From: an uncultured archaeon | GTDB lineage: Archaea > Iainarchaeota > Iainarchaeia > Iainarchaeales > CSSED10-239 | Direction: 5' to 3' | NCBI GenBank assembly: GCA_964463155.1 | Contig: CAYXAY010000001.1 | Location: forward strand, 1 to 32,000 | Length of the DNA stretch: 32,000 nt | Shown here: positions 3,367-18,363 of the stretch, piece after piece | Layout: each line of letters starts with the position of its first letter | Numbering within the stretch: position 1 is the first letter of the stretch | Notes under the pieces: model-generated | Databases searched by the model: none | Seen by the model: the letters and a program-made list of their open reading frames with translations, nothing else | Told to the model about the DNA's origin: nothing | Made by a program: the position numbers and the translations under genes

Positions 3367-4080
3367 TTATCTTATTGGCTTTAACAAATGATATTTGTCC
3401 AAATAAACTTCTGTTTTTAATATTTCAATAAATGGTATAACAAACATCACAAAGAACGCCGTTGCAATTATCGGTCCTGCAAATACTCCAAACAAAACAT
3501 CAATAATGTAGGTTATAAGTAGCAAAATAAACACCGTCAAGAAAAGATACACAAAATATATCCAGTTCTTTCTAATGTAGTTTAAATTTATAACTAACGC
3601 GTATTCTGCACTTTGTTTTTCCATAACAATGATTTGTGGGATAAACCAAAACAATATGGTTATGACTAGCAACACAATGTTTATGAAAATATTATTTAGC
3701 AAACCAAAATCAAACAAAAAGCAAAGAGCCAAATACAAAAGCAAATAGAATGAAACATTGAATTTAAACAACTCAATAAAAGGCCTTCTTAGTTCCTTAG
3801 AATATTTGCTTTCAAAATCATATTCTCTTTCAACCCTATAAACAATAATTGCTTGAAGCAAAGAATATGCAAATATTATTGCAACAAATGCAATCAAGGT
3901 AAGTATTATTATCAAGGCATCTTGATTCAAAAGATTATAAGTAATATTCAAACTACCCCCGGAAATACTAAACAAAGGATTTACTAAAAACAAAGTAAAT
4001 ATCAACAATAGACTTGTTGCAAAGACTAGCTTGATATTTTGCATATATTTCTTTAACGCTATATTAATGTCCAGACTCAT
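3367..4080 (-). CDS. hypothetical polytopic membrane protein
   Basis: 237 aa with about 6 long hydrophobic segments. No catalytic motif recognised. Confidence 0.55.
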   Translation of the reverse strand: MSLDINIALKKYMQNIKLVFATSLLLIFTLFLVNPLFSISGGSLNITYNLLNQDALIIILTLIAFVAIIFAYSLLQAIIVYRVEREYDFESKYSKELRRPFIELFKFNVSFYLLLYLALCFLFDFGLLNNIFINIVLLVITILFWFIPQIIVMEKQSAEYALVINLNYIRKNWIYFVYLFLTVFILLLITYIIDVLFGVFAGPIIATAFFVMFVIPFIEILKTEVYLDKYHLLKPIR

Positions 4081-5398: not shown

Positions 5399-5785
5399 TT
5401 ATTTTTTAGAAGCAATTATTCCAATTGCTCCGGCTATAACAAATCCAAAAAATGAAGATGAGATAAACTGTTGCCAAAACCGCAAATCCCTTGGAACCGC
5501 CATATTATTTAATACAACGTACAATTCATAAGCAAAAATATAAACAACAATATAATAACAAATAATTGAAATCACAATAAACAATGCAAATATAGTCCAT
5601 TTATTCCAGTTAGTATATTCTTCAATGACTGGCATTACAAGAAACATTCCAAAGAACGAAACAATCGGCAAAAGAATATACATTGGGCTTGTAAAGAAAT
5701 TGTCCTTTGCTAAAAAATAATAGACAACTTGCGCCAAAACATAAGCCAAAATAAAAAATAAACTGATTTTAAGGATTTTAGTCAT
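5399..5785 (-). CDS. hypothetical small membrane protein (4 predicted TM segments)
   Basis: 128 aa, four hydrophobic stretches, 10 nt upstream of the methylthiotransferase gene on the same strand. Confidence 0.5.
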   Translation of the reverse strand: MTKILKISLFFILAYVLAQVVYYFLAKDNFFTSPMYILLPIVSFFGMFLVMPVIEEYTNWNKWTIFALFIVISIICYYIVVYIFAYELYVVLNNMAVPRDLRFWQQFISSSFFGFVIAGAIGIIASKK

Positions 5786-5929: not shown

Positions 5930-6892
5930 ATGATTAGCGCCTCAGCACCATGGACTGAAAAATACAGACCTCAAATACTTGATTATATATCAGGCCAAAA
6001 ACACGTTGTTCTAAAACTTAAAAAATATGTTGAAACCAAATCAATACCAAACATGCTTTTTGCTGGACCGCCAGGAGTTGGTAAAACCTGTTGCGCAATT
6101 GCATTAGCAAAAGAATTATTTAAAGATGGTTATTCCCAAGATTTCTTGGAATTAAACGCCAGTGATGAAAGAGGAATAGGAGTTGTTAGAGGAGCAATAA
6201 AAGATTTTGCAAGAACCATGGCGCTAACATCAAATTTCAAAATTATATTTCTAGACGAAGCAGATGCTTTAACCCCCGAAGCGCAACAAGCATTAAGAAG
6301 AACAATGGAAAAATACACTAACACCGTAAGATTTATTTTAAACGCAAACTATTCTTCTAAATTGATCCCGCCAATACAAAGCAGATGCGCATTATTCAAA
6401 TTTAAACCATTAACAAAAGAAGACATTAAAGACAGAATAGAATATATTGTTAAAGAAGAAAAACTAAAGATTGATAAAGAAGCAATTGAAGCAATTAACG
6501 AGGTTTGCGAAGGCGACTTAAGAACTGCGATCAATCTTTTGCAGACCGCTGCGTCAACTAACAATCACATAACAGAAAAAGAAATTTACATAGTTTCAAA
6601 TTCTGCTCAGCCACAAGACATAATACATTTAATTGATGCTTGTCTTTCAAAGGATTTCTTAAAAGCAAGAACAACACTTGAAACTTTGCTGTTTGATCAC
6701 GGCCTTTCCGGAGAAGACATAATCAATCACATCTATAAAAAAATAATAACCTATCCTGAAAACAAAATAAGCACTAACAAAAAACTAAAAATCATTGACA
6801 AGATTGCAGAATTTAATTACAGATTAGTGCAAGGCGCAAATGACAGAATTCAACTTGAAGCATTAATCTCACAAATAATATTAATTGAGTAG
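5930..6892 (+). CDS. rfcS: Replication factor C small subunit
   Basis: PWTEKYRP box, Walker A GPPGVGKT, Walker B FLDEADAL, SRC motif (QSRCALF). At 320 aa there is no intein. Confidence 0.92.
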   Translation: MISASAPWTEKYRPQILDYISGQKHVVLKLKKYVETKSIPNMLFAGPPGVGKTCCAIALAKELFKDGYSQDFLELNASDERGIGVVRGAIKDFARTMALTSNFKIIFLDEADALTPEAQQALRRTMEKYTNTVRFILNANYSSKLIPPIQSRCALFKFKPLTKEDIKDRIEYIVKEEKLKIDKEAIEAINEVCEGDLRTAINLLQTAASTNNHITEKEIYIVSNSAQPQDIIHLIDACLSKDFLKARTTLETLLFDHGLSGEDIINHIYKKIITYPENKISTNKKLKIIDKIAEFNYRLVQGANDRIQLEALISQIILIE

Positions 6893-6903
6893 GTGAAAAA
6901 AAC

Positions 6904-8655
6904 TTGGTAACAACATCATACATAGACGAATTAAAAGAACAAATGGCAAAGGACTTAGAAAAGGCCAACAAAAACATTGAAGATAAAAAAGCAAAAGAGG
7001 AACAAAAAACAATCGCGCCTCCTGAAACAAAATCCATTATTTCATCAAATGAAACAAAACTGGATAATATTAAGGACACTTCTAAATCATCAGCCACAGA
7101 TGATCTTGACCAGTTTGTGCCAAGGCAGACAAGTGAGTCAATAAAAACCTTTATGACTACAATAAAAAATGACAAGGAAGCAGACATTTTAATTTCTAAA
7201 TGGGAATCAACAGGAAAGCTTGTAACAAAATATGCGGACACAGAAATCTACAGGGTTCTAGACGAACCTCTTCTTTATTATAAAACATCAATACCAAAAC
7301 CATCCCCAAACCAAAAACTAATAATAAACACATTAAAGGAAGCAACGACCAGACTAATAACAACAGACCCTTATAAGATCAGAGACCCAATCCAAAGACA
7401 AAACATTTATTACCAAAAAATTTTAGAGATTCTAGAAAACGCTCCAGAAATCAATGTTCCAAAGCATTTGTTTGACTTCTACGCTAAAGCGGTTGTTACT
7501 GAAATGGTTGGCTTTGGTATGATTGATACTTTGATTCACGACACAAAGCTTGAAGAAATAATGATTATTGGTCCAAAAAAGCCAGTATATATTTATCACA
7601 GAGACTATGGAATGATGTATACCAACATTATTTTCTACACAGACGAAGAAATACAAGACATCATTGACAAGATTGCAAGAGTTCTTGGAAGAAGAGTAGA
7701 CATCTCTAATCCATTACTAGATGCTAGACTTCCAGACGGCTCTCGTGTAAATGCAACAATACCACCGGCATCAATTGATGGTTCAACAATAACTATTAGA
7801 AAATTTAGAGAGGACCCTTACACAATCGTGGACTTGATAAACTTTTCAACAATCAATATGGAAGTGGCAGCATTCCTTTGGTGTGCGGTTGATGGCATGG
7901 GCGCAAAACCAGCAAACCTATTAATCTCTGGTGGAACTGGTTCTGGTAAAACAACATTACTAAATGTTCTTGCAAACTTTATTCCAAATTCAAGTAGAGT
8001 TCTAACAATTGAAGACACTGCAGAATTAAAACTTCCAATAAAACACATAATAAGATTTGAAGGAAAGCCTCCGGGTTTAGAAGGAACAGGAGAATTAACT
8101 CTTGACATCCTTGTAAAAAACACTTTAAGAATGAGACCCGACAGAATAATAGTGGGCGAAATCAGACACGCAGAAGCAAGCACGTTGTTTACTGCCATGA
8201 ATACAGGTCACGACGGCTGTATGGGAACAATACACGCTAACACAGCAAGAGAAACCCTTGTAAGAATAACTTCTCCACCAATGGATGTTCCAATGCTAAT
8301 GCTTGCCGGTCTAGACTTTATTGTTGTTGAAAAAAGAATGAACACCACCAGAGGTTTGGTCAGAAGAATAATTGAAGTTGCAGAGATTACAGGGGTCTAT
8401 GAAAACAATCCAAAATGTAATACGATCTTTAGATGGAACCCTCAAACAGACAATCTTGAAAGAACACCTGAGCCAATAAGATACTTTGATATTATAAAAA
8501 CCTATACAAAAAACACAGATGCAGATATTAAGGCAATTGTGGAGAAAAAGATAAGTATTTTAAATGGTTTAGTTAAAAAGAATATTAGGTCCATAGATGA
8601 GGTTTCAAAGGTCGTCCAGGATACTTACACTCAAGAAATGAAGCCCAATATGTGA
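6904..8655 (+). CDS. Type IV pilus / type II-IV secretion family ATPase (archaeal EpdL/ArlI/TadA-like) with a roughly 110-aa low-complexity N-terminal extension
   Basis: Walker A SGGTGSGKTT, Asp box TIEDTAEL, Walker B PDRIIVGEIR, His box GHDGCMGTIHAN. TTG start at 6904 lies 7 nt after AGGTGA; an alternative ATG is at 6943. Confidence 0.88.
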   Translation: MVTTSYIDELKEQMAKDLEKANKNIEDKKAKEEQKTIAPPETKSIISSNETKLDNIKDTSKSSATDDLDQFVPRQTSESIKTFMTTIKNDKEADILISKWESTGKLVTKYADTEIYRVLDEPLLYYKTSIPKPSPNQKLIINTLKEATTRLITTDPYKIRDPIQRQNIYYQKILEILENAPEINVPKHLFDFYAKAVVTEMVGFGMIDTLIHDTKLEEIMIIGPKKPVYIYHRDYGMMYTNIIFYTDEEIQDIIDKIARVLGRRVDISNPLLDARLPDGSRVNATIPPASIDGSTITIRKFREDPYTIVDLINFSTINMEVAAFLWCAVDGMGAKPANLLISGGTGSGKTTLLNVLANFIPNSSRVLTIEDTAELKLPIKHIIRFEGKPPGLEGTGELTLDILVKNTLRMRPDRIIVGEIRHAEASTLFTAMNTGHDGCMGTIHANTARETLVRITSPPMDVPMLMLAGLDFIVVEKRMNTTRGLVRRIIEVAEITGVYENNPKCNTIFRWNPQTDNLERTPEPIRYFDIIKTYTKNTDADIKAIVEKKISILNGLVKKNIRSIDEVSKVVQDTYTQEMKPNM

Positions 8656-9809
8656 TTTTTAAAATGCAAGAAGATGATAAAAATTTAAAAAATTTTAAAA
8701 AAGAACTGGAGAAAGACGAGTCAAAGCCAACAATTGATTTGGATGCTGTTCAAAACATAGTTTCTAAATTAAAAGATAAAGACAGAGTAAAAGGGCTTTC
8801 AGGAACTGTTTCTGAAGGACACTTAAAGGAATTAAGAGACATCATTTCTGAAGGAAAGCTTGCAAAATTAAATGTTGATACAGAAACAAAACTTCTTGCT
8901 AACTCTGAGTCACAAATCAATAAAGGGGCAGTAAAGATTTATGGCGCCTTTCAAGGGCCCATTAATGCTATTGTCAAATCAATAATCAAGCAAAGCATAG
9001 GAAGAAAAATCGCATTTTATTTATATTCTGCAGGCACAAAAAAAACTCTTGTTCAACATCTTGTTCTTTCAGTCATCTATTCTTTAATAGTGACTGTAGG
9101 ACTTGGTTTTTTTATGCTAATAATACTTGCAATAGTTAATCCGTTGTTTTTGATATTCTGGCCTGCAATAATCATATTTGTGTTTATATTTGCATTAATA
9201 TCATTTGCTTATCTTGTGCCTATGCAAAAGGCAAGGCTTAGAGGAATAATGATTGACACAGAGCTTCCATATGTTCTAAGACACATATCAACAGAGTTAC
9301 AGGCGGGCATTGGTCTTTACAAGACATTACAGTCTGTTGCAAAAAACGATTATGGTGTTTTGTCAGAGGAAATGGCAAGAACAATAATTGAGATAGAAAA
9401 TGGAACAGACACAAAAACAGCACTAAGGCACATGGCTCTAAGAAGTCAATCAAAAAGCTTTAACATAGCAATCTTTCATATTGTAAGAACATTAAACACA
9501 GGTGGCAATCTTTCACAAAGTATTGATAGTGTTGCTAACACAGTTTCCTTTGAATTACTAGAGTCTTCAAAACAGTTTGGAGAAAAAATGAATTTCTTTG
9601 GAATAATATTTATTTTTGTTGCAATTGTTCTTCCAGTGTTTTTAGCAATATTAAGTGCTATTGCAAACGCACCGATTGGACAAGATGGTTCTTTGTTTCT
9701 TCCAGGAGTACTGACTCCAACATTACTAACTATAGTTTATTTGGTAGTAATGCCTGCAATCTTTGTGTTTATATCCTATTATATTAAGATGATAGAACCA
9801 AAAATGTAA
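8652..9809 (+). CDS. Pilus platform membrane protein with a single T2SSF domain (TadB/TadC / EpdJ/K-like)
   Basis: T2SSF-like segment ELPYVLRHISTELQAGIGLYKTLQSVA...ENGTDTKTALRHMALR...NTGGNLSQSID flanked by TM helices. The GTG at 8652 overlaps the ATPase stop (ATGTGA); the ATG at 8664 is an equally plausible start. Confidence 0.75.
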   Translation: MIFKMQEDDKNLKNFKKELEKDESKPTIDLDAVQNIVSKLKDKDRVKGLSGTVSEGHLKELRDIISEGKLAKLNVDTETKLLANSESQINKGAVKIYGAFQGPINAIVKSIIKQSIGRKIAFYLYSAGTKKTLVQHLVLSVIYSLIVTVGLGFFMLIILAIVNPLFLIFWPAIIIFVFIFALISFAYLVPMQKARLRGIMIDTELPYVLRHISTELQAGIGLYKTLQSVAKNDYGVLSEEMARTIIEIENGTDTKTALRHMALRSQSKSFNIAIFHIVRTLNTGGNLSQSIDSVANTVSFELLESSKQFGEKMNFFGIIFIFVAIVLPVFLAILSAIANAPIGQDGSLFLPGVLTPTLLTIVYLVVMPAIFVFISYYIKMIEPKM

Positions 9810-9822
9810 ACGAGTAGAAAAA

Positions 9823-10758
9823 ATGGCAAATACATTAAAAGAATCGTTAGATAGATACCAAATATATCTTTATTCAATGAAAATAAAGATGAAAGCACTT
9901 TATTGGTTTGCATTAATAATAGTTGTTGCTGTGATTTTTGGAGGGCTTTTTGTATTTTTAGATGTGATGTTTAAAGGTTCTGGCGCATTAACAAAGGTTG
10001 GTTTTCTGGTTTTTGCAATAACTCTTAATTTAGGTCTTGGTCTCCCGTATTATAAATATTTTAAGAATCTTGAACTTATTGAAAAATATTGGCCCGATTC
10101 CTTAAGACTTATTGCAGACACTATGAAATCAGGTTCATCACTTGACTATGCTATAAGAGAAGCAAGTTCTGCTGATTTTGGACCGTTGTCTTTGGAGTTT
10201 AATGAAATTATAAGAAGACTAGAGATGGGAGACACCATGTCTCAAGCACTTAACCACATGTCTCTAAGAATAGAATCTAAGATTGTAAGAAGAACAATAA
10301 CATTGATTCAAGAATGTTTAAAGACAGGGGCTCAGCTTGCTGATGTCCTAGAGGAAATTGCTCAAGACACCAAGCAGGTGTTTAGAATAAAAAAAGAAAG
10401 GGAAACAAAAACACTTCTACAAGTTATTTTTATTTTTGCAGCAGGAGCAGTTATTGCACCGTTTATCTTTGGTCTTACAAATGTGATTACGGTCTTTTTA
10501 ACTAACATTTCAGCTAACTCCGGGGTTGCTTCTGCTGACGCTCTTGCTAAATCAATAGTAGCTCAAAAGACAATGAGTTTGCTTCTAGATGCTTACCTAT
10601 TACTGGAAGTTGCAGCTGCTTCAGTAATCATTAGTCTTATGAGATCAGGAACGTTTACAAATGCAATTGCGTTTTTCCCGGCCATGATAACAATAGCATA
10701 TATAGTTTACATTGTTTCTCAAGCAACAATAAATGGAATATTAATTGGAGTTGTATAG
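9823..10758 (+). CDS. Second pilus platform membrane protein with a single T2SSF domain (TadB/TadC / EpdJ/K-like)
   Basis: WPDSLRLIADTMKSGSSLDYAIREA...EMGDTMSQALNHMSLR...LKTGAQLADVLEEIA, bracketed by TM segments. Paralogous in layout to the preceding gene. Confidence 0.75.
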   Translation: MANTLKESLDRYQIYLYSMKIKMKALYWFALIIVVAVIFGGLFVFLDVMFKGSGALTKVGFLVFAITLNLGLGLPYYKYFKNLELIEKYWPDSLRLIADTMKSGSSLDYAIREASSADFGPLSLEFNEIIRRLEMGDTMSQALNHMSLRIESKIVRRTITLIQECLKTGAQLADVLEEIAQDTKQVFRIKKERETKTLLQVIFIFAAGAVIAPFIFGLTNVITVFLTNISANSGVASADALAKSIVAQKTMSLLLDAYLLLEVAAASVIISLMRSGTFTNAIAFFPAMITIAYIVYIVSQATINGILIGVV

Positions 10759-10761
10759 ATT

Positions 10762-10944
10762 ATGAATAGATTAAAAAAATTATTAAAGGAAAAAAGAGGG
10801 CAAGTAAGCCTTGAAGTGTTGTTGATTGTTGGAATAATTGTTCTTGCAGCAATACTTGTTGGTTATTATCTAAAGCAAATATCTTATAACAACAGCCAAA
10901 AAGTAAAACAATATACTGAAGCAACAACTTCTGGCAGATCATAA
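10762..10944 (+). CDS. Mini prepilin (60 aa) with class III signal peptide
   Basis: MNRLKKLLKEKRG-QVSLEVLLIVGIIVLAAILVGYY: basic leader, G-Q junction, E at +5, hydrophobic helix, and only about 25 further residues. Confidence 0.65.
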   Translation: MNRLKKLLKEKRGQVSLEVLLIVGIIVLAAILVGYYLKQISYNNSQKVKQYTEATTSGRS

Positions 10945-10959
10945 ATCGGTGATTTTCGG

Positions 10960-11430
10960 ATGTTAAAATTAAACAGAAAAGGGCAGGGCGCTTTAGAGTA
11001 TCTTTTGGTAATTGCAGGAGTAATACTTATTGCAATAATTGTAATTTACATAATAGTTACAAGTGGTTCGTCAAGCAGAGATAAGGTAGACGATTCTTAT
11101 CAAAAAGTAAACAACCTGACTGACAGCGCAATATTTCCACCAAGAATCAAATCAGTAACTTGTGCTTATAAAGACATTAATACAATAAGATTTAATTTAA
11201 GGATCTTTGAATCCCCAACACCAGGAATTGACACATATTGTCTTTATCTTTCAGGAAGAGACATTAACAGATGTAGCGTTTATTCTGGGGCAACATTAGT
11301 TTATGATTACAATATACTAACAAACATTGTTGCAATAGACAATAACACATTTAATTTAACATTAATTTCTTTGCTTGATGAGAACAACTTCTCAAACCCA
11401 AGCGTTTCAGAAAGATGCACCATAAGATAA
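10960..11430 (+). CDS. Prepilin (156 aa): class III signal peptide + 4-Cys Ig-like module
   Basis: MLKLNRKG-QGALEYLLVIAGVILIA, then the IFPPRIKSVTC...TYCLYLSGRDINRC...ERC module. GGTGA RBS lies 7 nt upstream. Confidence 0.75.
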   Translation: MLKLNRKGQGALEYLLVIAGVILIAIIVIYIIVTSGSSSRDKVDDSYQKVNNLTDSAIFPPRIKSVTCAYKDINTIRFNLRIFESPTPGIDTYCLYLSGRDINRCSVYSGATLVYDYNILTNIVAIDNNTFNLTLISLLDENNFSNPSVSERCTIR

Positions 11431-11433
11431 AAT

Positions 11434-12948
11434 ATGTTTGAAGATATTTTTAATATGTTAAAAAAGCAAAAAGCACAAACAGCAGTTGAGGTGCTAATAA
11501 TCATCAGCGGAATATTGATTGTTGCGGTTGTTGTTGTTATGATTTTTATATCAACAGGCTCAGCAAAAGCAGACGACATAACAAAAACAGATACCGCCCA
11601 TCAAAAACTGCTTGACAACACAATCTTTCCCCCAACACTTGATTCTATTAAATTAACAGATAGTAACGACACAAATGTAACTATTCAAGTAAGTATTACA
11701 GAATCCCCATCTTCAAATATTAAAGATTATTGTTTGGTTGTTAATGACAACATAACAAATTATTGTAATAGTCCAGGCACTAGTGGAAATATGGTTTTTA
11801 ATATTCCAAAAGAAACCACAAATTATTATTCTGTATCTCTTGTCTCAAGAAGCAACCAAGATAAGATTTCCTCATCAAGCTTTGTTTTAACTGGAAGTAT
11901 TGCTACTGTTGGCACAGGCGGCACTGACGACACAGGCGAAACTGGACCGCTACTATTAAACTTTACTTGTCCGACAGGCTATGCAAAAGTTCCGGGACTT
12001 GCAGAATATAATACAATAGGCGATAAAAACGGTTTTTGCGTTATGAAATGGGAAGCAAAAATTAATTTTGATAATGATCCATTAGGATTGGGAGACATTA
12101 ATACTAGTTGTGAACATTTTGTGGCAAGACCTAACCACACTTTGCGTTATGGTATTTGGGATATAATGGCCACTGGTTGTCGCATTACTTCAATAACTAA
12201 TAGATTAGTTTCCACTGCGGAAGGATACCCTATAGGAAATGTAAATCAAAACGAAGCGAGAAATTATTGTCAAGGATTGGCCACTTCAACAGGCAAAGAT
12301 TATCATTTAATAACAAACAATGAATGGATGACAATCGCAAGAAATATAGAGGATCAAAATGTTAATTGGATTAGCGGGGCGGTGGGCGTGGGACCATTAA
12401 AAAAAGGAAACACCTATGGTCGCATCCCCGCAATTCCAGGAGAATATGGCGTTTCTTGTGTTATAAGCGCCGTAGCAGAGAGATGGTTAATCGATTATGT
12501 GGGCGCACCATGTTCTGCTTCACCAAATCATAGAAATCAACTATCATTAGCAAGATTGGTTTTATCTACAGGAGACGAAATTTGGGATTTTTCGGGGAAT
12601 ATGGAAGAGTGGGTTGATAAAACTGTTTATTCTTATGTTGAACCAAAACCAATTGATGAACAAAATTATTCTTCACCAGCAAGATTTGAATTTACATTAA
12701 TTGATCGCACTAAATTACACCCTTCTTTTCCTGAAAACCAATACCGCCCAAAAAATTTAAATTGGAACTCAATACAAGGCGTTGGTCAGATATTTAGTCA
12801 CTGGAGAAGTGGAAACGCAACTCATGGCATTTTAAGAGGAGGGAGGGTTTTTTTAAATAACGGACCAACAGGAATTTATACAATTGATTTTTACACTCCA
12901 ACAACTAGAACCATATATGCCGGATTTAGATGCGTGTATGTGCCATAA
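11434..12948 (+). CDS. Giant prepilin (504 aa): class III signal peptide + Ig-like module + Gly/Thr/Asp linker + FGE-sulfatase/C-type-lectin-like domain (putative pilus adhesin)
   Basis: MFEDIFNMLKKQKA-QTAVEVLIIISGILIV; IFPPTLDSI...DYCLVVND..NYC...VSLVSRS; linker GTGGTDDTGETG. The C-terminal domain has SUMF1-family landmarks: FCVMKWEAK, EARNYCQ...GKDYHLITNNEWMTIARN, WDFSGNMEEWVDK, LRGG, GFRCV. Confidence 0.75.
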   Translation: MFEDIFNMLKKQKAQTAVEVLIIISGILIVAVVVVMIFISTGSAKADDITKTDTAHQKLLDNTIFPPTLDSIKLTDSNDTNVTIQVSITESPSSNIKDYCLVVNDNITNYCNSPGTSGNMVFNIPKETTNYYSVSLVSRSNQDKISSSSFVLTGSIATVGTGGTDDTGETGPLLLNFTCPTGYAKVPGLAEYNTIGDKNGFCVMKWEAKINFDNDPLGLGDINTSCEHFVARPNHTLRYGIWDIMATGCRITSITNRLVSTAEGYPIGNVNQNEARNYCQGLATSTGKDYHLITNNEWMTIARNIEDQNVNWISGAVGVGPLKKGNTYGRIPAIPGEYGVSCVISAVAERWLIDYVGAPCSASPNHRNQLSLARLVLSTGDEIWDFSGNMEEWVDKTVYSYVEPKPIDEQNYSSPARFEFTLIDRTKLHPSFPENQYRPKNLNWNSIQGVGQIFSHWRSGNATHGILRGGRVFLNNGPTGIYTIDFYTPTTRTIYAGFRCVYVP

Positions 12949-12961
12949 TTTATGAGAAAAT

Positions 12962-14554
12962 ATGTTTGAAGAGATTTTTAATAAGTTAAAAAAGCCAAAA
13001 GGGCAAACGTCTTTAGAAATACTTATTGTTATGGGGGGATTAGTTATTGTTGCAGTAGTTGTTGTAACTGTGATTCTTGCAGCAAGCAAGAACAAGGTCG
13101 CGGAAATTACAAATGCAGACAGGCAAAATGCAATGGTTATTGACACTACATTGTTTCCGCCAAACATTAATTCAATAAGATGTAATTTAAAAGAAGACAA
13201 TACAGGCATAGACATTTCATTATCAGTTATTCCTTCAGCAACAAAAGATATTTCAGATTATTGTTTAGTAATAAACGGAAGACCAACAGAAATCTGCGCG
13301 TCTTCTTCATTAACAGAATTATTATTTACTACTGCCGAAGTTGGAAACGGAAACTTCAAAGTAGCTTTAGTTTCAAGAAACAGCAGAAATGCAATATCAA
13401 GTAACAGCGTTAGTTTTAATTGTAGAGTAACATTGCCTATTGGAGGAATAATCATTCCTCCAGATAATAATCAGACAACACCAGAGAAATTACCATTAAA
13501 TTTTACATGTCCAGCGGGCTATGCGAAAGTTCCGGGACTTGCGGAATATAACACAATAGGCGATAAAAATGGTTTTTGTGTTATGAAATGGGAAGCAAAA
13601 ATGGATTTTGATAATGATAATATTGGCGACACAAATGTAAATTGTATTCGCTTTTTTAGATCAAATTGCACTTATCACAATATTTGGGATGTACGCACCT
13701 GTTCAGTTCCAAACAACACAAAAATAACTAGTACCTCTCAAGGATTGCCTATAGCAAATTTAACATTAGCTGATGCTAGAAATTTTTGTTCAAATCAAGG
13801 TAGCGGATATCATTTAATTACTAATGACGAATGGATGACGATAGTAAAAAATATAGAGGATCAAAATGTAAATTGGAGCGGGGGGGTAGTAAACGTCGGT
13901 AGTTTAAAAGTAGGAAATGCCGGTGGGTCAAGTGGTCGAATAACTTACAATCTTGCGAACTCAAATGTGTCTCCATATGGTCCACTGTCACTAGGGCAAG
14001 CGTGTTCTACCTATAGCTTATTATATGATTATAACGGACACCCCGCACCCAATTCAGTTTATTGTACTACCGGTTGTACTGAAAACAATAATTTAACACA
14101 ACCCTCTAAATTAAGATTATCGACAGAAGACGAAATTTGGGATTTTTCTGGAAATCTTATGGAATATGTAGATAAAACACTATTTAGAGGGCATTTACCA
14201 ACGCCCGAAATTAATGGGGAACCACAAACAAATATTTGGACAGAATTTATAAATATAAATTCCACAAACAACACTTACCTTCAAGATAAAGAATACAAAC
14301 CAACAAATTCAAATTGGCATTCTGCGGTAGGAATTGGCAAATTTATGATTAATCAATATACCCAACCAGAAACGATGATTTTTATAAGAGGAGGTGGCGC
14401 ATTTTATTATGTTAACAATTTTGACGCGTCGGCAGCCGGCATCTATTCATTATATCTATTAAGAACCACAACAACCGCGGTTCCAAGTGGCCCACATATT
14501 GACCAAGGTCCAGGCATTGGCTTTAGATGTGTTGGTCCAGGAACTCTAAATTGA
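12962..14554 (+). CDS. Giant prepilin paralogue (530 aa): class III signal peptide + Ig-like module + FGE-sulfatase/C-type-lectin-like domain (putative pilus adhesin)
   Basis: MFEEIFNKLKKPKG-QTSLEILIVMGGLVIV; LFPPNINSIRC...DYCLVINGRPTEIC...VALVSRNSRN...FNC; then LNFTCPAGYAKVPGLAEYNTIGDKNGFCVMKWEAK, DARNFC..GSGYHLITNDEWMTIVKN, WDFSGNLMEYVDK, IRGGG, GFRCV. Confidence 0.75.
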   Translation: MFEEIFNKLKKPKGQTSLEILIVMGGLVIVAVVVVTVILAASKNKVAEITNADRQNAMVIDTTLFPPNINSIRCNLKEDNTGIDISLSVIPSATKDISDYCLVINGRPTEICASSSLTELLFTTAEVGNGNFKVALVSRNSRNAISSNSVSFNCRVTLPIGGIIIPPDNNQTTPEKLPLNFTCPAGYAKVPGLAEYNTIGDKNGFCVMKWEAKMDFDNDNIGDTNVNCIRFFRSNCTYHNIWDVRTCSVPNNTKITSTSQGLPIANLTLADARNFCSNQGSGYHLITNDEWMTIVKNIEDQNVNWSGGVVNVGSLKVGNAGGSSGRITYNLANSNVSPYGPLSLGQACSTYSLLYDYNGHPAPNSVYCTTGCTENNNLTQPSKLRLSTEDEIWDFSGNLMEYVDKTLFRGHLPTPEINGEPQTNIWTEFININSTNNTYLQDKEYKPTNSNWHSAVGIGKFMINQYTQPETMIFIRGGGAFYYVNNFDASAAGIYSLYLLRTTTTAVPSGPHIDQGPGIGFRCVGPGTLN

Positions 14555-15170: not shown

Positions 15171-15629
15171 ATGAATTTCAATCTTACTTTTTCAAAGAAA
15201 GGACAGGGCGCCTTGGAATATTTAATAATTATAGGTGCGGCAATATTAGTCGCAGTTATTGTTGTTTCTTTAATAATTTCAGTTAGCAGGGCTAACACAG
15301 ACATAACAACAACAAGCAACGAACAATACACAAACATGATTGATAACACAATAATCCCGCCAATGATAATAGGTGTTGACTGTAATGCGGTAGCTGATCG
15401 TGCAAGATTTACAATAAATCCTTCAATAACCGAAGCAGTAAGTCAATATTGTTTGGTTGTAAATGGAGACGTAAATATAACTAATTGTCAAAATACAAAT
15501 TCTGTATTGACTTTCCCATACAATTCATTTGTAAATGGCACAGCATATCGTATGTCTTTAGTAGGGAAAAGGGGAAATGTTTTTTCGTCGCCAACAGCAC
15601 CACCAACATCATGTACAGCACACAACTAA
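15171..15629 (+). CDS. Prepilin (152 aa): class III signal peptide + 4-Cys Ig-like module
   Basis: MNFNLTFSKKG-QGALEYLIIIGAAILVAVIVV; IDNTIIPPMIIGVDC...QYCLVVNGDVNITNC...MSLVGKRGN...SC. Confidence 0.75.
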   Translation: MNFNLTFSKKGQGALEYLIIIGAAILVAVIVVSLIISVSRANTDITTTSNEQYTNMIDNTIIPPMIIGVDCNAVADRARFTINPSITEAVSQYCLVVNGDVNITNCQNTNSVLTFPYNSFVNGTAYRMSLVGKRGNVFSSPTAPPTSCTAHN

Positions 15630-15840: not shown

Positions 15841-16944
15841 ATGTTTTATGCAAATATAGCAATATTATTTTTTGTTTTCTTGTTTCTATTGCTTGCTTCT
15901 TTTTCTGATATTAAAACTAGAACAATATCTAATAGATTAATTCTTTTCTTCTTAATATTTGGAGTTTCGTTTAATGTTCTTATGGCAATCTATCTTAATA
16001 ACTATAGTCCATTATTATCATTATTATTTTCAGCAATAATAGGCTTTGTTGTCTTTTTCATATTATGGGAATTAGGCGTCATTGCTGGAGGAGACGCAAA
16101 ATTATTTATGGCAATATCAATGATGCTTCCAACAATGCAAAACACTTTTCAGATCTTTAACATAGGACAAGAAAAAATATTTACTTTTCCAATATTCACA
16201 ATATTATTGTTTGTTGTTAGTGTGTTTATGGTTCTGCCATGGATATTATTATATTCTAAATACCTATTATTCAAAAGAAAAAACTATTTGCATCTTTTAA
16301 AGGAGATTTTTTCAAAAAAGAACCTTATATCGATTATGGATTCAGTTCTTGTAGTTGTTCTTCTAGGCCTAATAATGTCTATCTTATCTCTTACAAGCAT
16401 CCGATACATTCTAATAATCTCTTTTGTATTTACCTATCTTATATTTAAAATAAAAATAAAAAAACACTTCTATACTTTTATTATATCTCTATACTTAGTT
16501 GTTTTTTTCATGTTCCTATTAACCTCAAGAAAAATAAACTATTTACTACTATCAAACACGCTAAACACAATAGTCTTTGTGTTTATATTCTCCGTATTAA
16601 TCATATATTACAGATACATAAAAGAAAAAGTGTTTGTTGAAACAAAAACAATCTCTCAACTAACGGAAGGAGATGTCCCGATATACAATTACTATTATAT
16701 TAAGAGGAAGTTAATTATTAAAGAATCAAATTTCTTTAGAAAACTAAAAGAGTTGGCACAAGGAACCTATTACAAGGGTTTAAAGGTTGATTCCAGCAAG
16801 GCCTGTGGCATTTCAGTAAAAGACATAGCTTTTTTAAAAGATATGTATAAAAATAAATTAATAAACAATAAAATATATGTAAAGAAGACTATTGCATTTA
16901 CGCCAGCAGTTCTTCTTGCATTTATATTGTTGATAATATTTTAA
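15841..16944 (+). CDS. A24-family archaeal prepilin (class III signal) peptidase, EppA/PibD-like, with a long C-terminal extension
   Basis: Two catalytic Asp contexts: SFSD23IKTRTISN (codon 15907-15909) and AGGD85AKLF (codon 16093-16095), spaced as in PibD-type enzymes. It is polytopic. Residues from about 150 to 367 add further TM segments and a roughly 90-aa soluble insert. Confidence 0.8.
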   Translation: MFYANIAILFFVFLFLLLASFSDIKTRTISNRLILFFLIFGVSFNVLMAIYLNNYSPLLSLLFSAIIGFVVFFILWELGVIAGGDAKLFMAISMMLPTMQNTFQIFNIGQEKIFTFPIFTILLFVVSVFMVLPWILLYSKYLLFKRKNYLHLLKEIFSKKNLISIMDSVLVVVLLGLIMSILSLTSIRYILIISFVFTYLIFKIKIKKHFYTFIISLYLVVFFMFLLTSRKINYLLLSNTLNTIVFVFIFSVLIIYYRYIKEKVFVETKTISQLTEGDVPIYNYYYIKRKLIIKESNFFRKLKELAQGTYYKGLKVDSSKACGISVKDIAFLKDMYKNKLINNKIYVKKTIAFTPAVLLAFILLIIF

Positions 16945-17772: not shown

Positions 17773-18363
17773 ATGCACGGCAAATATTTGTTATTTCAAT
17801 TGTTTTTCATAATAAGTGTCTTTGTAAACTTATTTGTTAATGACAATTTGTTTTTAAAAATACTTTTAGTTTTCTTATTGTTCCTGTTTGGACTATTAAT
17901 ACTTCCAGAATTTCAACATAACAAAAACAAGTTTTTATTTACAGGAATAGGGTTTGTAATTCTTTCTATTCTCTTCTTGTTTGCTGGATATTTCATAAAT
18001 CTTACCTACATAATCGTCCTAACTTGTATACTTGTGGTTTTCTTCTATTGCTCAAAGGTGCTTTTTAGCACAAGCTATGGCGAAGTCATATTTTCAACAG
18101 ACAGAACTGCCCAAATAAAGATAAAAGATGTCTTTTACAATCTTAACAAGATTTATTCTATTGAGACATCAAAGAAAATCGCATCAGGCTCAATAGTATC
18201 AATATGTCTTGACAATTCTATTCTAAGAAAGCCAACAAAGATAATTGATGTTATTTGTGAATCTACAACAACAATTCCAAAAACTTCAAAAACACAAAAA
18301 ATCCCAAAGAAAGCTATAAAAACTAGAAAGAACACAAAAATCTCTAAGAAGAAAAAGAGATGA
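17773..18363 (+). CDS. hypothetical membrane protein with a soluble C-terminal domain and Lys-rich tail
   Basis: 196 aa, about 4 TM segments, then a beta-rich-looking segment and the tail ...KTSKTQKIPKKAIKTRKNTKISKKKKR. No family recognised. Confidence 0.5.
   Translation: MHGKYLLFQLFFIISVFVNLFVNDNLFLKILLVFLLFLFGLLILPEFQHNKNKFLFTGIGFVILSILFLFAGYFINLTYIIVLTCILVVFFYCSKVLFSTSYGEVIFSTDRTAQIKIKDVFYNLNKIYSIETSKKIASGSIVSICLDNSILRKPTKIIDVICESTTTIPKTSKTQKIPKKAIKTRKNTKISKKKKR

Follow-up and report, generated by a model that had tools for sequence, protein, structure and literature searches.

We analyzed a 32,000-nt stretch of archaeal DNA, here called the window, with a focus on its two tandem open reading frames (ORFs) gp1 and gp2, which encode giant pilins. 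The analysis indicates that the two proteins are probably minor modular pilins of an Epd-like pilus and that their non-catalytic heads, folded like C-type lectins (CLec), would bind an external ligand; they would then be pilus-borne adhesins. Such a role had been proposed in a preliminary description of this DNA, and it is supported by the pilin locus, by the homology of the stalk to small pilins, by the fold of the head and by relatives that are targets of diversity-generating retroelements (DGRs). The closest relationship of the head is to DGR variable proteins; this was missed in the preliminary description. Modular pilins and receptor-binding heads with the CLec fold are both known already.

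Leader, stalk and head of gp1 and gp2

The coordinates, lengths and strand given earlier for the two ORFs were confirmed (Table 1), and the proteins are full-length paralogs (41% identity, E 1e-107). gp1 starts with MFEDIFNMLKKQKA/QTAVE, continuing as MFEDIFNMLKKQKA/QTAVEVLIIISGILIVAVVVVMIFIS, and gp2 with MFEEIFNKLKKPKG/QTSLE, continuing as MFEEIFNKLKKPKG/QTSLEILIVMGGLVIVAVVVVTVILA. The slash marks the predicted cleavage site, between Ala14 and Gln15 in gp1 and between Gly14 and Gln15 in gp2, where the putative leader likewise covers aa 1-14. In both proteins a Glu at position +5 is followed by ~25 hydrophobic residues. These K[GA]/Q..E leaders (KA/QTAVE and KG/QTSLE) are in register with those of the PF04021-positive neighbouring pilins, and the motif is kept in 10 of 10 full-length orthologs; the eleventh ortholog, P0009, is without its N-terminus. 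Together with an A24/Arc_PepC peptidase encoded 1.3 kb downstream of the giant pilins, this register bears out the earlier assignment of a class III (EppA-type) prepilin leader.

The N-terminal 165-171 aa of gp1 and gp2 form a stalk that is homologous to small pilins. BLASTP matched aa 1-165 of gp1 to a 156-aa pilin of the same locus (E 9e-15, 31% identity) and the stalk of gp2 to a 152-aa pilin (E 4e-21). In the AlphaFold2 model of full-length gp1 (mean pLDDT 85.2, pTM 0.70) a 46-residue N-terminal helix (aa 17-62) precedes a beta-sandwich and a flexible linker; the latter is the gappiest and least conserved block across the orthologs. The stalk homology and the gp1 model agree with the Ig-like module, common to the small pilins, that had been described before. 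Furthermore, the model consists of a pilin module (aa 1-155) and an independent head, with a linker of low confidence between them (aa 156-178), which fits the definition of modular pilins by Raynaud et al. 2021, a pilin module linked to one that is not peculiar to pili. A stalk-profile search for other heads on the same stalk yielded little besides small pilins and a set of ~290-aa proteins, and gave no sign of a wider range of heads. Two extracellular features are also apparent: sequons occur at a density of 1.6-2.6 per 100 aa in the giant pilins versus 0-1.0 in the cytoplasmic proteins of the window, and the number of Cys residues is even in both gp1 and gp2.

The heads comprise 326 aa in gp1 and 348 aa in gp2, in line with an earlier estimate of ~330-350 aa. 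All of the head motifs that had been named were found in both proteins. FCVMKWEAK occurs in gp1 and gp2; EARNYC...YHLITNNEWMTI of gp1 has its counterpart in DARNFC...YHLITNDEWMTI of gp2; the next pair, IWDFSGNMEEWVDK and IWDFSGNLMEYVDK, is present as quoted; and RGG (aa 468-470 in gp1, 476-478 in gp2) is followed by GFRCV (aa 497-501 and 520-524, respectively). PF03781 matched 72 of the 93 aligned family members individually (best E 1.3e-14). DUF1566, which had also been proposed, gave no match at E<=1.

The sequence of gp1 alone found nothing meaningful among PDB chains; the solved structures were reached by the family profile only, which matched TaqVP (E 1.7e-7) and SUMF2/pFGE (E 2e-5) and also PorK/GldK, EgtB and FGE. 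A Foldseek search with the gp1 model listed TaqVP (5vf4) first (E 2.3e-7), then PvdO (2.6e-4), Mtd (3e-4), ToxD, TvpA and PorK. The head of gp2 was modelled alone in a separate AlphaFold2 run, using a homolog alignment that overlapped that of gp1 (pLDDT 80.8, pTM 0.88). Its first Foldseek match was also TaqVP (E 4.5e-6, TM 0.47), followed only by folds of the FGE superfamily (ToxD, Mtd, FGE, EgtB-IV, pFGE, CarF). Among predicted viral structures (BFVD) the best matches of the gp2 head were phage proteins of the tail-collar-fibre and of the SUMF-domain kind (best E 1.8e-7). The separate AlphaFold models and the Foldseek results show, at the level of predicted structure, that the heads of both proteins have an FGE-type CLec fold, as had been assumed when their C-terminal domain was called FGE-sulfatase/CLec-like.

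Head relatives and diversity-generating retroelements

Since TaqVP, Mtd and TvpA each belong to the DGR variable proteins, we searched for template repeats (TRs). No template-like copy of the 3' end of gp1 or gp2 was found in the 32-kb window (word size 7, E<=10); the only match to either 3' end was the other paralog, with 69% identity over 52 nt. Family searches detected no RVT_1 or bAvd ORF in the window. The idea that gp1 and gp2 are DGR targets was thus rejected for the window, which holds no TR, reverse transcriptase (RT) or Avd. Likewise, no DGR TR, RT or Avd was found in a 21.7-kb stretch around the syntenic locus of the related genome L002, and no RT in the contexts of the relatives P0037, P0040 and P0073.

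The same scan over all fetched loci served as a positive control and revealed a second copy beside at least 17 of 73 head C-termini. These copies are 102-128 nt long, lie within a few kb and cover exactly RGG..GFRC. Their mismatches fall almost solely on the template's own adenines (18/18, 18/18, 16/16, 15/15, 11/11 and so on). DGR loci with pilin-borne heads were found in archaea, including L011, L016, L048 (Iainarchaeum) and L055 (Ca. Forterrea, complete genome), and with N-methyl pilins in bacteria of the Candidate Phyla Radiation (CPR), including L053 (Paceibacterota) and L080 (Saccharibacteria). Full target-bAvd-TR-RT cassettes were verified in L055 (3527-7403; Ca. Forterrea multitransposorum CP045477) and L053 (3470-6462). 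The leaders of the pilin targets are of the archaeal xSPLIAT type or of the bacterial N-methyl type. The templates encode Asn-rich RGGNWNN...NNNIGFRC peptides, for example RGGNWNNGTNAGVLNLNLNNTPGNRNNNIGLRCV with 12 AAY codons in DPANN relatives; the DGR variable region hence corresponds exactly to RGG..GFRC. The equivalent of this region in gp1 aligns with the variable region of TaqVP. In gp1 and gp2 the equivalents are not Asn-rich and differ by indels. The accessible DGR literature, a scope without the main survey of CPR and DPANN (Paul et al. 2017), makes no mention of type IV pilins as DGR targets.

In the clade of the window the stalks fall into two orthologous types; stalks of one type are 46-97% identical, those of different types 31-41%. 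Type A comprises gp1, L002-485, P0002-4 and P0006, type B gp2, L002-555, L002-581, P0007, P0008 and P0010. The heads are ~36-48% identical whatever the stalk type, with some closer pairs such as P0002/P0003 (60%) and P0007/P0008 (59%). The identities of stalk and head are 65 and 39% for gp1 and P0006, 82 and 43% for L002-555 and P0008, and 97 and 66% for the two type B copies of L002; one pair has the opposite pattern (83 and 97%). Both type B copies of L002 carry long insertions in RGG..GFRC, which are Cys-rich in the 581-aa copy (5 Cys), and their sequences suggest a recent duplication, or a gene conversion of the stalk, with rapid divergence of the heads. Column conservation over the 11 full-length proteins peaks at FCVMKWEAK, HLITNNEWMT and IWDFSGNM (0.82-0.88) and is lowest in the insert loops and at aa 471-490. 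The RGG..GFRC spacer measures 31-78 aa in this clade versus 33-34 aa elsewhere. In a rough neighbour-joining tree without support values the heads of the clade are monophyletic, with type A and B interleaved, and other archaeal heads are scattered among bacterial ones; this pattern is suggestive of head exchange.

The head is widespread and no product of chance. A first homolog search returned 243 proteins, most of which matched the head only. An exhaustive phmmer search against 1.84 billion cluster representatives gave 2,189 matches at E<=1e-3, of which 965 reached E<=1e-10 and 29 reached E<=1e-30, and only ~6 of the clusters aligned with gp1 end to end. Among the top 150 representatives of this search, ~13 begin with a bacterial G/FTLxE N-methyl leader, 9 with a class III K[GA]Q..E leader (one of these is a protein of 1,805 aa with five head copies), 6 with an archaeal xSP[LIV][IV]A pilin-like leader and ~30 with lipobox-like N-termini; the head was also found on Sec-signal proteins and phage fibres. 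A search through the representative genomes of GTDB yielded at least 441 relatives. The best 80 of them form three groups, namely many lineages of CPR (Morani-, Pacei-, Doudna-, Shapiro-, Ames-, Roizman- and Dojkabacteria, Saccharibacteria, Minisyncoccia), DPANN archaea (Nanoarchaeota, Iainarchaeum, Ca. Forterrea) and predators (Bdellovibrionota, Bacteriovoracaceae, Oligoflexales).

It was observed that the head family is enriched in organisms which attach to other cells. In predatory bacteria the heads stand behind lipobox-like signals and have no pilin leader (L020, L027, L074, L079, L083-L085); judged by these signals, the proteins of Bdellovibrionota and Bacteriovoracaceae are probable lipoproteins. 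At least one of the head proteins of the predators, L068, is a DGR target. Giant proteins with 5-8 tandem heads also occur (P0254 with 1,805 aa, P0255, P0256, P0266, P0336); since P0254 begins with a class III K-N-A/Q..E leader, it would be a pilin-anchored multi-head protein. In L003 (1731-5946), a bacterial relative of P0037, a pilin-CLec gene has T2SSE/T2SSF genes and two Laminin_G_3 (ConA-like lectin) proteins a few genes away, which points to the use of several kinds of lectin-type module around a single CPR pilus locus.

Many of the relatives already carry pipeline labels such as "flagellin-like protein" and "SUMF1/EgtB/PvdO family", and Dataset S1 of Raynaud et al. 2021 lists, without comment, eight bacterial IPR012902-IPR005532 proteins (pilin and SUMF domain; PMC8179133). 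A literature search found no paper describing a pilin-FGE/CLec fusion, bacterial or archaeal. The fusion is thus catalogued, the bacterial form included, and functionally uncharacterised; the archaeal class III form with a beta-sandwich stalk and tandem paralogs appears to have no earlier description. The survey of related genomes that the preliminary description had suggested located the fusion on archaeal and on CPR pilin leaders. Its statement that no archaeal pilin of this architecture is characterised still holds, but the implied rarity does not, as pilins of CPR and of other DPANN share the head. Its claim of novelty was overstated, because the same head occurs on N-methyl pilins of CPR, on other pilin leaders of DPANN and on lipobox-like N-termini of Bdellovibrionota.

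Proposed adhesion and alternative functions

In the mechanism that we propose, the EppA-like peptidase would remove the 14-residue leader at K-[A/G]/Q. Through the helix and the beta-sandwich, i.e. the module of the small pilins, the ATPase and the two platform proteins would then be able to build the subunit into the filament, probably in small numbers or at its tip. The head would act as a ligand-binding module of a family that is hypermutated by DGRs in related DPANN and CPR. The C-terminal RGG..GFRC stretch is its predicted binding surface, because this stretch is homologous to DGR variable regions and to TaqVP. The last ~40 residues of TaqVP form a variable ligand-binding site, which overlays the catalytic segment of FGE (PMC6328139). 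In the clade of the window, where the scanned stretches hold no DGR, variation comes instead from 2-3 tandem paralogs per genome, whose heads diverge far faster than their stalks, with indels concentrated in RGG..GFRC. The most likely role would be adhesion of the pilus to a surface glycan or protein of another cell or of a substrate.

Several points weigh against this reading. The match of gp1 to PF03781 is marginal and partial (24.6 bits versus a cut-off of 23.3, aa 258-312 only) and gp2 gave no match, so that this check, proposed in the preliminary description, was mixed in outcome. Direct Pfam support is thin, and the case for the head fold is far stronger at the level of the family and of structure. 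A PF04021 search, proposed as well, scored gp1 at 17.2 bits (E 0.0049) and gp2 at 11.9 bits (E 0.24), both under the gathering cut-off of 23.7 bits. The TM-scores from Foldseek are modest (0.26-0.47), because the heads hold large insertions, and two loops are poorly modelled (aa 333-372 of gp1 and aa 150-210 of the gp2 head). Heads of ~35 kDa are too bulky to be carried by each subunit of a compact filament, which is why tip or sparse incorporation is assumed. The evidence for adhesive pilins consists of sequence comparison and predicted structures, the tree of the heads is a rough one, and episymbiosis of the lineage is only a possibility.

Instead of adhesins, gp1 and gp2 could be bindosome-like receptors. 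The leader would then do no more than anchor or assemble them at the surface, within a short pseudopilus or the membrane, and the heads would capture nutrients or other solutes. In Sulfolobus, sugar-binding proteins bear class III signal peptides and are assembled by a dedicated system. A leader with a ligand-binding domain is equally compatible with such an arrangement, and the location of gp1 and gp2 in an extended filament is one that we infer. The bindosome is subsystem 4I in the preprint 10.64898/2026.04.22.720090. However, the two genes lie between bona fide pilins in a pilus locus, and beyond the leader their products contain the complete globular module of the small pilins. Family searches in the window detected no ABC transporter partner beside gp1 and gp2, and those relatives of the head whose structures have been solved bind receptors or are variable proteins, from phages and DGRs, and none of them is a protein that binds solutes. 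Together, these results make bindosome-like receptors unlikely.

A further conceivable reading is that a DGR elsewhere in the genome continues to hypermutate gp1 and gp2. DGRs target many of the homologous heads, among them those of Iainarchaeum and Forterrea, the DGRs of Treponema and Legionella have known remote targets (PMC5758913), and the window spans just 32 kb of the genome. Nevertheless, a remote template is quite improbable. The searches found no template copy, RVT_1 or bAvd in the window and no DGR in the 21.7-kb stretch of L002. Furthermore, the variable-region equivalents have 34 aa in gp1, 49 aa in gp2 and up to ~76-78 aa in L002, and one template could therefore not serve all copies.

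In FGE the catalytic Cys pair (human C336/C341) sits between RGG(S) and GFRC. No Cys was found between RGG and GFRC in gp1 and gp2, and none in nearly all of 133 homologs, most of which have a segment of 33-34 aa. The absence of the FGE Cys pair, which had been noted before, was thereby confirmed, and it implies that the head is not an FGE-type enzyme. RGG..GFRC was equated with the FGE catalytic segment through alignments of the family profile and of a C-terminal profile and through the TaqVP paper (PMC6328139). In a profile of the C-terminal third of the head, GNVxEW and RGGxW...GFRCV are in register with PorK and pFGE, which are also the best profile-sequence matches to the C-terminal head segment. 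PorK and pFGE are members of the superfamily without FGE-type catalysis.

These data also bear on the view that the head is a surface enzyme, an FGE-, EgtB- or PvdO-like domain which modifies an extracellular substrate, oxidatively or otherwise. The head does belong to the SUMF1/EgtB/PvdO superfamily, some relatives are named 'SUMF1/EgtB/PvdO family nonheme iron enzyme' by NCBI, and the authors of the TaqVP study leave other activities formally possible (PMC6328139). In addition to the missing Cys pair and the proximity of the catalytic-segment region to PorK and pFGE, family searches detected no DinB-type iron-binding domain, as in EgtB and OvoA, among the window proteins. The would-be active site has the lowest conservation in the domain and is mutated by DGRs in relatives, which is incompatible with fixed catalysis. 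An enzymatic function was therefore rejected as highly improbable. The homology of the head to DGR variable proteins strengthens the case for binding over catalysis, which the preliminary description had already favoured.

Finally, there is very little to recommend the view that the N-termini are uncleaved membrane anchors or Sec signals and gp1 and gp2 plain membrane-tethered surface proteins: the PF04021 scores are below the cut-off and the cleavage is deduced from sequence, but the K[GA]Q..E motif with Glu at +5 shares the register of the PF04021-positive neighbours and is kept in the orthologs, the ~25-aa hydrophobic segment runs into the predicted 46-residue helix, unlike a Sec h-region, and the locus has a dedicated EppA-like peptidase.

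We tentatively raise the possibility, which we consider more doubtful than the adhesin function itself, that the head is a cross-domain receptor-binding cassette of cell-cell recognition among episymbiotic DPANN, CPR, predatory Bdellovibrionota and phage tail fibres, which was probably exchanged and is displayed on pili in DPANN and CPR. The specificity of its RGG..GFRC stretch would be tuned either by DGR hypermutation (Forterrea, Iainarchaeum, Paceibacterota, Saccharibacteria) or, in the clade of the window, by expansion of tandem paralogs with head swapping and indels, without a retroelement. In that case gp1 and gp2 would determine the host range of the archaeon, in analogy to the receptor-binding proteins of phages.

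Precedents for such adhesins exist among bacterial pilins. Among the modular pilins of Streptococcus sanguinis (Raynaud et al. 2021, PMC8179133), PilB bears a vWA module and PilC a lectin module, and PilX1/PilX2 of Saccharibacteria are lectin-like minor pilins (PMC11623550). Like gp1 and gp2, they combine a pilin module, a short linker and a bulky ligand-binding module; as minor pilins they take part in adhesion or in the binding of a host, whereas gp1 and gp2 are known from sequence and models only. They differ from gp1 and gp2 in being bacterial, with a G/FTLxE N-methyl leader, an alpha/beta pilin fold and a vWA, ConA-like or beta-propeller module; gp1 and gp2 have an EppA-type K[GA]/Q..E leader, a beta-sandwich stalk and an FGE-type CLec head.

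The structural matches of the heads, TaqVP (5vf4, the best one), TvpA (2y3c) and Mtd (1yu0-4), share with them the C-terminal RGG..G[FL]R[CV] scaffold, which is the ligand-binding site in DGR proteins. TaqVP and TvpA are single-domain proteins and Mtd is the tip of a trimeric phage fibre, whereas in gp1 and gp2 the domain is grafted onto a pilin, without TR, Avd or RT in the window. The Cys pair is also absent from PorK/GldK, lipoproteins of type IX secretion and gliding, and from pFGE/SUMF2. However, PorK is a ring-forming periplasmic lipoprotein and pFGE resides in the endoplasmic reticulum; neither of them is a pilin or has the long insertions of gp1 and gp2. The formylglycine-generating enzyme FGE (SUMF1) and the sulfoxide synthases EgtB/OvoA have in common with gp1 and gp2 the superfamily fold and the motifs FxMxKYE, LPTExEW-like, GNVWEW, RGG and GFRC; gp1 and gp2 differ from them in having no FGE Cys pair and no DinB-like iron domain, in being extracellular and in their hypervariable 'active-site' segment.

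How the ultrasmall cells of DPANN and CPR recognize and hold their partners is largely unexplained, and pili are prime suspects. gp1 and gp2 are concrete candidates, as pilus subunits with a predicted binding head. Because the DGR homology names a candidate contact stretch of 34-49 residues, binding assays and mutagenesis are easy to design. The survey furthermore joins two features of DPANN and CPR that were noted separately before, abundant DGRs and abundant type IV pili: pilins from both domains of life bear the same head, and in part of the DPANN and CPR genomes this pilin head is hypermutated by a retroelement. The clade of the window offers a natural comparison, the DGR-free diversification of the same surface.

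The pilus locus and its surroundings

gp1 and gp2 are part of a type IV pilus locus that is complete and in which all genes lie on the plus strand. It encodes an ATPase, two platform proteins, at least seven class III pilins of PF04021 and a peptidase with A24 and Arc_PepC domains (Table 1); the intergenic gaps around gp1 and gp2 measure 3-15 nt. The peptidase has an NCBIfam match to EppA over aa 10-366 as well as a match to FlaK, and its sequence contains the Asp-bearing motifs SFSDIKT and AGGDAKL. According to the 2026 preprint 10.64898/2026.04.22.720090, archaeal type IV filament (TFF) system 1, which is Epd-like, consists of an ATPase, a platform split into two genes, many pilins and its own signal peptidase, and occurs in methanogens and DPANN. 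The window locus agrees with this definition, with its ATPase, two T2SSF genes, multiple pilins and dedicated peptidase. It resembles the Epd/EppA system of Methanococcus maripaludis in the ATPase, the two platform genes, the numerous pilins of PF04021 (formerly DUF361), which have Gln at +1, and the EppA-like peptidase. The two differ in the host, DPANN versus methanogen; the preprint reports adhesin-like and galactose-binding class III proteins in the Epd locus, and the text consulted describes no FGE/CLec-headed pilin for Epd pili.

In L002, which is represented by a 440-kb contig and whose PolD is 76% identical to that of the window, synteny is kept from RFC to DnaJ. Its region 6860-11746 contains three giant pilins versus two in the window; they have 555, 485 and 581 aa in the order B-A-B.

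Table 1. Features of the pilus locus and of gp1 and gp2, with positions in the window.
Feature	Position	Strand	Evidence
Pilus assembly ATPase (T2SSE/PilB-like)	6904..8655	+	PF00437 T2SSE E 1.6e-46; syntenic in L002
Platform protein 1 (T2SSF/PilC-like)	8652..9809	+	PF00482 E 2.7e-15; NCBIfam UpsF and ArlJ-like matches
Platform protein 2 (T2SSF/PilC-like)	9823..10758	+	PF00482 E 3.6e-17
Class III mini-pilin, 60 aa, helix only	10762..10944	+	PF04021 36.7 bits, E 3.7e-9
Class III pilin, 156 aa, helix and beta-sandwich, homolog of gp1 stalk	10960..11430	+	PF04021 31.5 bits
gp1, giant modular pilin, type A stalk, 504 aa	11434..12948	+	ORF, AlphaFold2, Foldseek
gp1 class III leader (predicted), aa 1-14	11434..11475	+	Sequence; alignment with PF04021-positive neighbours
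gp1 pilin beta-sandwich, aa 68-155	11635..11898	+	Seven strands in model; FnIII/Ig-like Foldseek matches E ~1e-3
gp1 flexible linker, Gly/Thr-rich, aa 156-178	11899..11967	+	pLDDT <50 at aa 159-170
gp1 head, FGE-subtype CLec, aa 179-504	11968..12945	+	PF03781, family profile, Foldseek
gp1 variable-region equivalent, aa 468-501, RGGRVFLNNGPTGIYTIDFYTPTTRTIYAGFRCV	12835..12936	+	34 aa; TP..R and GFRCV landmarks as in RGGNWNNGTNAGVLNLNLNNTPGNRNNNIGLRCV
gp2, giant modular pilin, type B stalk, 530 aa	12962..14554	+	ORF; 41% identity to gp1
gp2 head, FGE-subtype CLec, aa 183-530	13508..14551	+	AlphaFold2 head-only model, Foldseek
gp2 variable-region equivalent, aa 476-524, 49 aa with insertions	14387..14533	+	Alignments; no Cys before the GFRC Cys
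Class III pilin, 136 aa	14695..15105	+	PF04021 32.9 bits
Class III pilin, 152 aa, homolog of gp2 stalk	15171..15629	+	PF04021 31.1 bits
Second mini-pilin, 60 aa	15646..15828	+	PF04021 18.8 bits, E 0.0015; L002 ortholog (60 aa) at 12939-13121
Class III signal (prepilin) peptidase, EppA/FlaK-like	15841..16944	+	PF01478 Peptidase_A24 E 3.2e-16; PF06819 Arc_PepC E 1.5e-9
Two more class III-signal proteins, 148 and 117 aa	16958..17757	+	PF04021 17.1 and 27.5 bits; L002 orthologs, synteny conserved

The two 60-aa mini-pilins flank the pilin cluster on both sides. For the second one an 83-aa ORF beginning at 15577 had been called; its true start is likely the internal Met. The major pilin of Methanococcus maripaludis is very short, and by analogy the two mini-pilins could be the major subunits of the filament. 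Large repeat proteins with CHB_HEX_C_1, Fn3_assoc, DUF2341 and Laminin_G_3 domains were seen near related loci (L002 21364-21746, L005 15192-17207); they are candidates for further surface adhesins of the lineage.

The window has a G+C content of ~32% and is archaeal chromosomal DNA. Besides the pilus locus it includes the genes of PolD DP1 and DP2, of the RFC small subunit, of NOG1 and of topoisomerase I, and a GrpE-DnaK-DnaJ operon. A tRNA scan and an Rfam scan of the window gave no match. The PolD DP2 is 100% identical to a protein encoded on a 78-kb NCBI contig, and its nearest named relatives are from "Candidatus Diapherotrites archaeon" (~63% identity) and "Ca. Iainarchaeum"; the host is therefore taken to be a DPANN archaeon of the Diapherotrites/Iainarchaeota lineage. 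Three ORFs are without a significant family assignment, at 3367-4080 (237 aa), 5399-5785 (128 aa) and 17773-18363 (196 aa), and those of 128 and 196 aa have counterparts at the same positions in L002. As the 196-aa ORF adjoins the pilus genes on their 3' side and has this L002 counterpart, it may belong to the pilus locus.

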